Source of the DNA: a virus
Lineage: Duplodnaviria; Heunggongvirae; Uroviricota; Caudoviricetes
IMG/VR virus record: IMGVR_UViG_2541047823_000003
Reading direction: 5' to 3' (one strand)
Length of the DNA: 32,947 nt
Both the position numbers and the translations under genes were made by a program. Below, piece after piece: positions 5,567-8,517 of the stretch. The notes under the pieces were generated by a model. That model searched no databases and was not told the origin of the DNA. It worked only from the letters and a program-made list of their open reading frames with translations. Position 1 is the stretch's first letter. Every line of letters starts with the position of its first letter.

Positions 5567-8517
5567 CAGCGGTACTCCTTACGTTGTTTCTGAGCCAGCA
5601 GACGCTCCAGCATTTTTTCCAGCTCATGCAGACTCATATTCAGGGCACCAGTCAGTCCTGCAGGCGCTGTGGTTTCCCTGCCATTGAGGAAAAACTGAGG
5701 ATTAAAGCTGACCTGGATACCACCAGACGTTCCACCGCCGGTTGCAGCTGCACCACGGCCTGAATATCCGGCAGCCAGGATTTCAGGCGAGGGGATACGG
5801 GGAACATCCGGTGTCATCTCATTTGCCAGACGTTGCCCTGGTAAAATCGATGCCCGGGTGGAGAGCGGAATAGCGGGCATGGAAGACAAACTATTGATTA
5901 CGGCTCCGATCGCATTTTTAGCAGACGACATAAACCCATTGATATCGGGCAACGGCATACTGAAGCGAACACCTGAAGTGTTATCTCGTATTTCTGGCCC
6001 CTGAATGCTCACGGGCATTCTGGGGAGCAGTTCACTGGCCATTCGCTGCCCGGCCAGAGCTGCAAGCGGAGTGGTCCGCTGCAGGCCAATGGCGGCCCCC
6101 TGCGCGATATTGTCACCAAAGCCCATAAACACGCGGCTCGGCGAATGAATGCCCAGCTTTTCGCTGAACCAGCCACTGATGCTGTCACCCATTCCGGTTA
6201 CACTGGATTTGAGCGACTCCCATTTGTTTTTGATACCGTTAATCAGACCATCGACAAGATGGCCACCGAAGTCGGTAAACTTTGCCGGCAGATCAACACC
6301 AAGATATTTCAGCGCAACTGCAAAGGCTTTATAGAGCAGACCTGCCGGCGACCAGTTAATCAGCAGCTTACCAGTTCCCGCGATACCGCCGTTAAAGGCT
6401 TCCTGAATGTCAGCCCAGCACTGTTTAAACCAGCTACTGATGCTGTCACCCATTCCGGTTACACTGGATTTGAGCGACCCCCATTTGTTTTTGATACCGT
6501 TAATCAGACCGTCGATAAGATGGCCACCGAAGTCGGTGAACTTTGCCGGCAGAGCAACGCCGAAATATTTCAGCGCAGCCGCAAAGGCTTTATAGAGCAG
6601 GCCTGCCGGCGACCAGTTAATCAGCAACTTACCAATTCCCACAATGCCGCCGTTAAAGGCTTCCTGAATGTCTGCCCAGCGCTGTTTAAACCAGCCACTG
6701 ACTGCCCCCCAGTTGCGGTAGATAAGGTAAGCTGCTGCCGCGACAGCGGTGATAACGAGACCGATGGGATTCATCATCAGCGCACGTCCAATCCAGAGAA
6801 CAGCACGTCCGGCGAGCATAATTCCGCGAACCAGCCCCCCGGAGAGCACGCCACTCAGTGTTCTGGCTCCTCTGGCGACGGCGCTAAATCCGGTCACCAG
6901 CCAGCGGAGCTTACCGCCTTGCCCCAGTGCGAGCGACAGACGAAGCCAGTTGGCCCGAAGTAAAACAGCATTTTTCCAGACACTTACAAAGGGGGAAATA
7001 AGGAGATTCAGCCCCAGTTTGAGACCAACAGTCGCTATCTTAATCGCAAGGAGCGCACTGATGAGCTTAAAAGCCCCACTGACAAATTGCGGGTGAGTCG
7101 CTACCCAGTGTTTTGCCCCCTGAATGAGTGGAAGCAGTTCCTGAGTCAAAGAAATAAAAGATGGAGCTAATTGATCGCCCAGCGTAATTGCCAGATCGCG
7201 ACTGCTGACCATAAGTGTTTTAGTGGCTTCAAGGGGAGATTTCAGCCGCTGATCATAAGCACTGGCAAGCAAATCGTTATCCGCAGCCCTGAGAGCACCG
7301 GCACGGATCTCTCGATATCTGTCCATGTTGGCCAGCATCGGGCGGATAAATGCCATGACCTGCATATCCGCGAACATATCGCCCAGACCAAAGTTTTTCG
7401 CCAGAGCCTGAAGTGCCTCATCTCTTGCCGTATCATTCTTTATTTTCATGGCTGATTTGAAGCCGGCCAGCGCTTCGGGGCTTTTGGCATTGAGGTAACG
7501 TTCTATAACACTCAACATCCCTTCAATCGGAGAGATCCCCGCAGCTTTATAACTCGCAATAGATCCCTGCAAATCAATACCCAGATCAGCAAACTGTTTC
7601 TGAGTATCGCGGGCAAAAATTTTGGTAAGAAAGTTTTTAAAATTATTGGCTGCTTCGTCGGTGGAACCTGCACCGATTTTTGCTATCTGGAGACTGGCCC
7701 CGATTTCAGCAACAGCCTCTTTTCCACTGGCAATACCCGCCATCATTGGGGCCAGGGACTGCATCCACTTGACCTGATCCGGGATTTCAAATGACCCCTG
7801 GTCACCGGCATAAGCCATAATATTCTGAACGGCACCAAAATCTCTGGCCGCACCTTTCAGGGAGTTTTGCCAGACTGCGGCCACTTTTGCCCAGTCCTGA
7901 GCAGACGTGCGTGTTGCCGTTGCCGCGCGGGCAATATCCGGCATCAGAAAACCGATATCTGACACATTATCAATATTGTCGCTGATGAGTGAACCCACCG
8001 CCTCCTGCAGCTCATCCTGATACTGATTGTATTTAAGCGCCCAGCCTTTTATCTGTCCGGCAAGTGCATCCCGCGTTTTATTGTCATATTTTGCGGTGAT
8101 CGACATATCAATCATTTTGTCCTGAAAAAACATGGACTGCTGAACGGCAGGGGAAACCGTATGATAAACAGTCTGAGCCATGCCATACGCTTCAATCCCC
8201 TGACCATACAGCGCCATGCGGTTAGCTTTCAGCGCATCACTGGTAGCGGATGCCGCTGACAGACGGCGCTGCTGGCGCTCAATTTGCTCCATGGTGCGGC
8301 TTACCCGCAGCAGCTCGCTGTTGAGATGCTGCATCCGGGAAGAACCCAGTTGACCATAACGTTCTGTTGCACGGGTTAAAGCGTTCTGACGTTCCTGCAG
8401 GCGGCGTGAGGTATCGCTCAGGGAATCAAGCGCACGGCGGGTACCGCTCATTGCAGAACGGAATGTGCTGCCAATCATCCCGCCGATAACAACGCCGACT
8501 GAAAACTGTCCCGACAT
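5566..8517 (-). CDS. Tail tape measure protein
   Basis: 983-aa ORF, largest in the tail module; internal hydrophobic Gly/Ala-rich segments; two 87-aa tandem repeats; preceded by a frameshifted chaperone gene. Confidence 0.85.
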   Translation of the reverse strand: MSGQFSVGVVIGGMIGSTFRSAMSGTRRALDSLSDTSRRLQERQNALTRATERYGQLGSSRMQHLNSELLRVSRTMEQIERQQRRLSAASATSDALKANRMALYGQGIEAYGMAQTVYHTVSPAVQQSMFFQDKMIDMSITAKYDNKTRDALAGQIKGWALKYNQYQDELQEAVGSLISDNIDNVSDIGFLMPDIARAATATRTSAQDWAKVAAVWQNSLKGAARDFGAVQNIMAYAGDQGSFEIPDQVKWMQSLAPMMAGIASGKEAVAEIGASLQIAKIGAGSTDEAANNFKNFLTKIFARDTQKQFADLGIDLQGSIASYKAAGISPIEGMLSVIERYLNAKSPEALAGFKSAMKIKNDTARDEALQALAKNFGLGDMFADMQVMAFIRPMLANMDRYREIRAGALRAADNDLLASAYDQRLKSPLEATKTLMVSSRDLAITLGDQLAPSFISLTQELLPLIQGAKHWVATHPQFVSGAFKLISALLAIKIATVGLKLGLNLLISPFVSVWKNAVLLRANWLRLSLALGQGGKLRWLVTGFSAVARGARTLSGVLSGGLVRGIMLAGRAVLWIGRALMMNPIGLVITAVAAAAYLIYRNWGAVSGWFKQRWADIQEAFNGGIVGIGKLLINWSPAGLLYKAFAAALKYFGVALPAKFTDFGGHLIDGLINGIKNKWGSLKSSVTGMGDSISSWFKQCWADIQEAFNGGIAGTGKLLINWSPAGLLYKAFAVALKYLGVDLPAKFTDFGGHLVDGLINGIKNKWESLKSSVTGMGDSISGWFSEKLGIHSPSRVFMGFGDNIAQGAAIGLQRTTPLAALAGQRMASELLPRMPVSIQGPEIRDNTSGVRFSMPLPDINGFMSSAKNAIGAVINSLSSMPAIPLSTRASILPGQRLANEMTPDVPRIPSPEILAAGYSGRGAAATGGGTSGGIQVSFNPQFFLNGRETTAPAGLTGALNMSLHELEKMLERLLAQKQRKEYR
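6130..6700. repeat. 261-bp in-frame tandem duplication (two copies plus the start of a third) inside the tape measure gene
   Basis: accagc(c/t)actgatgctgtcacccattccggttacactggatttgagcga... occurs at about 6168 and 6429; plus-strand ORFs 6149..6334 and 6407..6595 translate almost identically; TMP protein shows WFKQ(R/C)WADIQEAFNGG...GMGDSIS(S/G) twice. Confidence 0.85.

Follow-up and report, generated by a model that had tools for sequence, protein, structure and literature searches.

A probably old tandem duplication in the tape measure gene of a Mu-like Escherichia coli prophage, with signs of continuing gain and loss of units by unequal recombination

Tape measure proteins are the textbook example of a molecular ruler, most tests of which have relied on engineered deletions in a few model phages. 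Here, we describe natural length variants of one such ruler, the tail tape measure protein encoded on a 32,947-nucleotide stretch of viral DNA (IMG/VR record IMGVR_UViG_2541047823_000003), which we refer to in its entirety as the window. An 87-residue unit stands twice in tandem in this protein, and once, twice or three times in its closest relatives. That tape measure length sets tail length was established in lambda (Katsura and Hendrix 1984) and T4 (Abuladze et al. 1994), as cited in PMC13585406 and PMC3271669. In TP901-1, removal of 347 amino acids (aa) shortened the tail from 118 to 65 nm, i.e. by ~0.15 nm per residue, and deletions in a repeat region and in a hydrophobic region both shortened it in proportion to the residues lost (PMC5099701); repeats were proposed in the same work as natural facilitators of changes in tape measure length. 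The gene in the window resembles the engineered versions of lambda gpH, T4 gp29 and the TP901-1 tape measure protein (Pedersen 2000, Mahony 2016, PMC5099701) in that a ruler reading ~0.15 nm per residue is altered in frame, and the T4 gp29 case indicates that the ruler principle holds for contractile tails. However, those changes were made in the laboratory, whereas the series of one, two and three units described here arose naturally and repeatedly.

Natural length differences between tape measure proteins are also on record. The mycobacteriophage Pixie has a tape measure protein that is 114 aa longer, together with a longer tail (PMC3203893), and the tails of phiCbK and Colossus fit the value of 0.15 nm per residue (PMC3556154). 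As at our locus, the tape measure proteins of relatives (Pixie versus other Cluster K phages, phiCbK versus Colossus) lie far apart in length, by ~100–190 residues, with tails to match; in contrast to our locus, the extra residues have not been traced to a recombining tandem repeat, and the phages are not known to switch copy number at the population level. A second parallel comes from tape measure proteins composed of 11-residue units marked by tryptophan or phenylalanine (W/F), in which internal units have been duplicated and lost in tandem and in which, as here, orthologous and paralogous comparisons served to order the events (Belcaid, Bergeron and Poisson 2011, PMC3271669). That tape measure genes duplicate and lose internal units in tandem has thus been described before (PMC3271669). 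Unlike the units of that class, the one considered here spans 87 residues rather than 11, is single-copy in nearly all relatives instead of forming part of a long array, and lacks the 11-residue W/F periodicity: autocorrelation of the one-unit version of the protein against 500 shuffles gave z = 1.0 at lags 11 and 18 alike, and membership in the W/F-periodic class was rejected for want of a signal at either lag. What is new is a population-level record of an 87-residue unit whose copy number, in a widespread Mu-like prophage of E. coli, switches through unequal recombination between one, two and three; a literature search pairing tape measure with in-frame tandem duplication returned no relevant match.

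The protein in question, 983 aa in length, matches PF10145 (PhageMin_Tail; 74 bits, cut-off 33.2), TIGR01760 (tape_meas_TP901; 56.6 bits, cut-off 28.8) and the PHROG tape measure families, the latter with E values down to 3.5e-133. Tandem Repeats Finder, applied to the whole window, reports a single tandem array, which lies within this gene at 6167–6701 (period 261, 2.0 (2.05) copies, 92% matches, score 937, 0 indels), and no other tandem repeat in the rest of the 32,947 bases. An exact-seed repeat finder likewise places 261-nt copies at 6167–6427 and 6428–6688, at an identity of 93%. Read in the register of the open reading frame (ORF; Table 1), the two units differ at 19 of 261 nucleotides (nt), 10 of these differences being nonsynonymous and 9 synonymous, and at 9 aa, corresponding to a synonymous divergence (dS) of 0.19 and a nonsynonymous divergence (dN) of 0.046. 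A preliminary description of the window, made from its sequence, had pointed to an in-frame 261-bp tandem duplication of near-identical 87-aa units inside the tape measure gene. The detected array, the ORF translation and the matches to PF10145 and TIGR01760 bear this out, and the peptides quoted there agree exactly with the translation of the minus strand. Two of its details need correction. What had been taken for the ‘start of a third’ copy is merely a 13-nt direct repeat, TCAGTGGCTGGTT, at 6167–6179, after which the sequences diverge and are unrelated (WFSEKLG versus WFKQRWA). Moreover, the array does not start at 6130, a position ~37 nt outside the repeat, its true edge being 6167.

Copy number of the unit varies among close relatives. 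In a protein search, the lengths of E. coli homologues pile up at 896, 983 and 1070 aa, i.e. at 809 + 87n, and the unit motif was located once, twice and three times in homologues of these lengths, respectively. Alleles with four units were not encountered, and nothing exceeded 1084 aa among the top matches of the score-ranked protein list. A match to the gene is present in 635 of 5426 complete E. coli genomes. Sixty evenly spaced records among these 635 comprised ~41 with a two-unit gene (2952 bp), 11 with an apparent three-unit gene and 2 with a one-unit gene (2691 bp), in addition to a few of the more divergent genes for proteins of 821/825 aa. Two one-unit genes were read individually, and a query specific for this form detected it in at least 16 complete genomes; the three-unit genes that were read (3213 bp) come from four such genomes, this class having been sampled rather than fully counted; and the two-copy gene was found in hundreds of other complete genomes. 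Strains with one copy include MLI114, F1140 and TUM14759, and those with three copies 10034292-3 and SF-173. All three copy-number states are therefore present in complete genomes.

The three states also occur on nearly the same background. The flanks of the array in the window are 0.2–0.3% apart from those of a one-unit allele and 0.4–0.8% apart from those of a three-unit allele, which marks the later gains and losses as recent, and two-copy and three-copy tape measure alleles alike are found together with one sheath protein accession, WP_000729834.1. At the protein level, 86 full-length homologues comprise 11 one-unit, 20 two-unit and 14 three-unit patterns, and when all 86 were clustered at ≤5 flank differences, 8 of the 22 clusters mixed copy numbers. 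The comparison of related prophages proposed in the preliminary description thus yields one, two and three units on near-identical backgrounds. Its suggestion of ongoing expansion and contraction by recombination gains strong support from these alleles, found as they are in complete genomes, and from the chimeric units that some of them contain.

Coding tandem repeats of variable copy number are known to change by unequal crossing-over and gene conversion, and the present array shares with them long near-identical units, chimeric junctions with variable crossovers, conversion tracts and recurrent changes on identical backgrounds, differing in that just 1–3 copies are seen. When units were typed at the sites distinguishing unit 1 from unit 2, the one-unit genes turned out to be clean unit 1|unit 2 chimeras, the crossovers of which fall into no fewer than three different intervals (Table 1). 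They carry derived states of both unit 1 and unit 2 relative to single-unit outgroups, and the one-unit genes of E. coli are therefore products of collapse rather than ancestral single-unit genes. Among three-unit genes, the middle unit of two alleles (L004 and L005) consists of unit 2 at nt 1–59 joined to unit 1 at nt 67–261, as would be expected if unit 2 had been exchanged with unit 1 in a misaligned pairing. Two others (L006 and L007) have a middle unit that is identical to unit 1 except for 1 nt, pointing to a separate and very recent gain. Judging from these sequences, three-copy alleles arose at least twice. Two-unit alleles are not static either: two of them (L011 and L012) contain a unit-2-type tract at nt 21–67 inside unit 1, suggestive of gene conversion. 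The locus hence displays different copy numbers on near-identical alleles as well as chimeric units with a single switch at varying positions, both of which were sought as marks of recombination.

Other length variants of the gene were encountered as well. A 961-aa allele in E. coli S1-ZIM-01-A (L010, tape measure gene at 601–3486) lacks the 22 residues LVTGFSAVARGARTLSGVLSGG of the hydrophobic region, which is located upstream of the repeat; the missing stretch is flanked by two ‘LV’ dipeptides and corresponds to ~6817–6882 of the window. A protein collection entry of the same length (P0086, 961 aa), which may carry the L010-type deletion, represents 51 member sequences. Two further variants each come from one contig and possibly reflect assembly errors, namely a 101-residue in-frame duplication in another register, covering the beginning of the unit along with the hydrophobic segment (P0018, 1084 aa), and an in-frame duplication of 12 residues, GDSISSWFKQCW, where the units join (P0033, 995 aa). 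Finally, a 71-residue segment encoded at 5839–6051 of the window (minus strand, residues 823–893) is missing from the 821/825-aa relatives KP12, GABEEC10 and IAL7250 and present in loci of Buttiauxella and Pseudocitrobacter. It starts with GQRMASELLPRMPVSIQGPEI, which is similar to the GQRLANEMTPDVPRIPSPEI that follows, and may be an older, decayed duplication or a hotspot of insertion and deletion.

How old is the duplication? The preliminary description had read the high identity of the units as a sign of a recent event, and there is something to be said for two copies that arose shortly before sampling: they are 92–93% identical over 261 nt with 0 indels, and some relatives do have third copies of truly recent origin, units 1 and 2 of L006/L007 differing by 1 nt. 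However, dS between the units of the window (0.19) exceeds the flank dS between any two alleles, which reaches at most 0.145 upstream and 0.048 downstream of the array, and the two copies are therefore not recent. Furthermore, the outgroup state equals that of unit 1 at some diagnostic sites and that of unit 2 at others, which shows that both units have acquired derived changes. The distinction between unit 1 and unit 2 is also common to all E. coli alleles examined, from which it follows that the array predates the diversification of the sampled alleles. Taken against the divergence, a recent origin of the two copies is very improbable.

Evidence on where the duplication took place comes from a scan of one genome per bacterial species, which uncovered 56 related loci. 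With two suspect loci excluded, 54 of 54 loci from other species have one unit, partly matched or undetectable in the most distant of them. These single-unit loci span a range from the Enterobacterales (Pantoea, Erwinia, Photorhabdus) to Burkholderia, Chromobacterium and Dechloromonas, the unit being exactly 261 nt long in most, and the one-genome-per-species scan revealed no independent duplications in other species. The 821/825-aa tape measure proteins of E. coli and Klebsiella have one unit, too. The two suspect loci are the only other two-unit ones and lie on contigs filed under Arthrobacter sp. GMC3 (L027; 8.2 kb at 7x, with a two-unit tape measure gene of ~95% protein identity to E. coli) and Y81 (L030; 0.56 kb at 3x, with a complete unit preceded by the end of another, ~89% identity). 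Short and of low coverage as these contigs are, they were dismissed as independent duplications and probably represent E. coli contamination.

On this distribution, the single unit is taken to be the ancestral state. Since all 54 loci from other species have one unit and the array is older than the split of the sampled alleles, the founding duplication appears to have happened once, in an E. coli-associated lineage and before these alleles diversified, and would thus be old. The ratio dN/dS between the units (~0.24) indicates continued purifying selection on both of them.

We consider it likely that these results are to be explained as a whole by an old duplication, current unequal recombination among one, two and three units and a consequence for the ruler. 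As a founding step, a single-copy segment of 87 codons would have been duplicated in tandem in the ancestor of the E. coli lineage, most likely via misaligned recombination or slippage between the short direct repeats TCAGTGGCTGGTT at the segment ends; in single-unit outgroups, 11 of the 13 positions of this repeat already match between the two unit ends. Thereafter, the units would have diverged at 7% of their nucleotides under maintained purifying selection. Being ~93% identical, the 261-bp units now provide unequal homologous recombination and gene conversion with a substrate. When unit 2 of one DNA copy is exchanged out of register with unit 1 of another, a three-unit gene results whose middle unit is a unit 2/unit 1 chimera, and the reciprocal or an intramolecular exchange gives a one-unit gene whose unit is a unit 1/unit 2 chimera. 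The expected exchange products have all been found in nature, with several origins and on nearly identical backgrounds.

Such changes can be expected to affect the tail. Each unit would add 87 presumably mostly helical residues to the ruler, which at ~0.15 nm per residue would lengthen tail tube and sheath by ~13 nm. Given that a tube ring rises by ~4 nm, this predicted effect amounts to about three tube rings per unit, and the alleles of 896, 983 and 1070 aa would specify three discrete tail lengths. Continued function is supported by the dN/dS of the units and by the sheath accession shared by two- and three-unit alleles.

Several points weigh against this account, some of them concerning the data themselves. 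The only cultured-phage record with the gene, that of Escherichia phage PhiKM (L001), has a 100-N gap at 4915–5014, starting inside unit 1 and followed by loss of the frame, meaning that it gives no copy number. Some one-copy alleles stem from short-read or metagenome assemblies, in which collapse of a repeat can make false chimeras, and L074 has a single unit that is oddly of the unit 2|unit 1 type, a pattern hard to derive in one step. A gap exactly in the repeat and variants of such provenance are what would be seen if the repeat or its copy-number variants were artefacts of assembly, whether by expansion or by collapse. Yet E. coli CE10 and IAI39, two independent complete genomes, both contain the 2952-bp gene at 100% identity, hundreds more have a two-copy gene, and therefore the repeat itself is no such artefact. 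As for the variants, one- and three-copy genes come from many complete-labelled assemblies made by different laboratories, and they exhibit clean reading frames and orderly chimeras. Because repeats may collapse in draft and metagenome assemblies, event counts rest on complete genomes, one-copy alleles from drafts having been considered and down-weighted. This leaves assembly artefacts next to no probability.

Another point concerns the dating. The units may have been ‘born diverged’, i.e. by unequal exchange between already different alleles of co-resident phages, in which case dS would overstate their age. The genes are indeed mosaic, as illustrated by L008, which is of the window type upstream and of the type of Klebsiella phage KP12 downstream, and the flank divergence given above is sharply unequal between the two sides of the array. 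Nothing speaks directly against such a birth, the near-even split of derived states between the units fitting either history; in either history, however, the array is older than the diversification of the sampled E. coli alleles. We regard a birth from diverged alleles as unlikely, and retain gradual divergence after an old duplication as the preferred reading.

The remaining points concern the tail. The value of 0.15 nm per residue is borrowed from other phages, and an AlphaFold2 single-sequence model of aa ~578–824, all helical, has a mean predicted local distance difference test (pLDDT) value of just 43, too low for geometry and hence unusable for this segment. In addition, two amber mutations in tail-module genes of the window may mean that its tape measure protein is no longer expressed in a working tail. 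Copy number might indeed be without effect on tail length, either through location of the segment outside the measuring portion (in a part that folds back or in an ejected part forming a membrane channel) or through neutral drift in defective prophages. In favour of this, the unit lies just downstream of hydrophobic segments at aa 480–600 (hydropathy peaks near aa 487–499 and 588–591), and besides the amber codons in the window there are further pseudogenes in CE10. Set against it are the purifying selection on both units indicated by their dN/dS, the proportional shortening of TP901-1 tails upon deletions in the repeat as well as the hydrophobic region (PMC5099701) and the isolation of a phage with this tail module, PhiKM, as a virion. 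Overall, the absence of any tail effect has a small chance of being right, and a ruler consequence of copy number is preferred.

One may go further and picture a contingency-like locus, with frequent and reversible switching between one, two and three units, three tail lengths in steps of ~13 nm or three rings, and selection keeping them for hosts that differ in the thickness of capsule or O-antigen; the lack of alleles with four or more units would then mark an upper functional limit. We find this scenario distinctly doubtful: the evidence is that switching happens, and selection on switching goes beyond it.

The amber codons just mentioned distinguish the prophage copy in the window. One is an in-frame TAG at codon 56 of the gp25/W-family baseplate gene (2333–2680, minus strand; stop at 2513–2515), where the homologue in Klebsiella phage KP12 has the tryptophan codon TGG; in IAI39 as well as CE10, the gene is marked in RefSeq as a pseudogene with an ‘internal stop’. 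The other is a TGG-to-TAG change at codon 61 (9207–9209, minus strand) of a small ORF at 9108–9389, between the tube and chaperone genes; PhiKM and strain 10034292-3 have this ORF intact, with the tryptophan in place. Each of the two stops is thus a G-to-A change at a tryptophan codon. Judged by the stop in its gp25/W gene, the copy in the window is probably defective for baseplate assembly, and with amber codons in two tail-module genes its strain would be a poor subject for electron microscopy of tails.

The surroundings of the gene agree with its assignment. It directly follows the tail assembly chaperone genes and precedes those for the distal tail and baseplate, the genes being arranged as sheath, tube, chaperones (with an overlapping GpE-family ORF), tape measure, gpU, gpX, gpD and then the V, W and J baseplate genes (Table 1); the presence of sheath and tube genes implies a contractile tail. 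In IAI39 and CE10, the RefSeq annotation describes a transposable prophage of the Mu type, with a transposase-like integrase-catalytic protein and an ExeA-family ATPase, and the prophage also has a DUF935 portal, Mu F-like and G-like morphogenesis genes and a P2-type contractile tail module. The nearest phage record is that of PhiKM (PQ738613.1), classified as Bcepmuvirus; a literature search for a PhiKM paper or tail measurement gave solely unrelated names of the phiKMV type. By sequence and context, the gene is thus identified as encoding the ruler, or tail tape measure protein, of a transposable E. coli prophage that is BcepMu-like and has a P2-type contractile tail.

The tail-fibre region showed differences of its own. 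Positions 1–437 of the window, the tail-fibre end, align to two overlapping places in CE10 (L014, 28081–28685). According to RefSeq, this region in CE10 comprises three short tail-fibre fragments beside a recombinase-family (invertase-like) gene, and in IAI39 one intact fibre gene of 2061 bp; the two prophages are otherwise 99.9% identical.

Table 1. Features of the repeat array, its recombinant units and neighbouring tail genes. Positions are those of the window unless given as nucleotides of the unit.
Feature	Position	Strand	Remarks
Repeat unit 1	6433..6693	-	aa 609–695, WFKQRWADIQ...GMGDSISS, reading-frame register
Repeat unit 2	6172..6432	-	aa 696–782, WFKQCWADIQ...GMGDSISG, reading-frame register
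13-nt direct repeat TCAGTGGCTGGTT (..SGWF), upstream copy	6689..6701	-	outer 5′ edge of the array
13-nt direct repeat TCAGTGGCTGGTT (..SGWF), downstream copy	6167..6179	-	agrees with the end of the Tandem Repeats Finder array
One-unit crossover	unit nt 93–114		L002, L003, L076
One-unit crossover	unit nt 215–259		L075
One-unit crossover	unit nt 13–21		L077
One-unit crossover	unit nt 178–215		L072 (metagenome contig)
Tail tape measure protein gene, 983 aa	5566..8517	-	identical to RefSeq WP_000016537.1 of E. coli IAI39 and CE10
gpU-like tail protein gene	4682..5566	-	directly downstream of the tape measure gene; homologous neighbour with PF06995 (Phage_P2_GpU)
GpE-family ORF overlapping the chaperone gene	~8593–8850	-	annotated ‘GpE family phage tail protein’ in relatives
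Tail assembly chaperone gene	8675..9010	-	adjoins the tape measure gene upstream; RefSeq ‘phage tail assembly protein’; homologous neighbour with PF10109
Tail tube gene	9392–9913	-	ORF list and RefSeq annotation
Tail sheath gene	9913–11340	-	ORF list and RefSeq annotation

For those who assemble and annotate genomes, the array has practical implications. The repeat breaks short-read assemblies, as witnessed by the gap in the PhiKM record, and length variants of this tape measure gene are to be expected and should not be treated as errors. Beyond its practical side and the allelic series that it offers, the locus is an ordinary example of a known phenomenon, useful but unsurprising. The series itself, with rulers of 896, 983 and 1070 residues, is natural, and because those two- and three-unit members that were examined share one sheath protein, it would allow the ruler rule, along with its quantisation by tube rings, to be put to the test in a Mu-like phage with a contractile tail.

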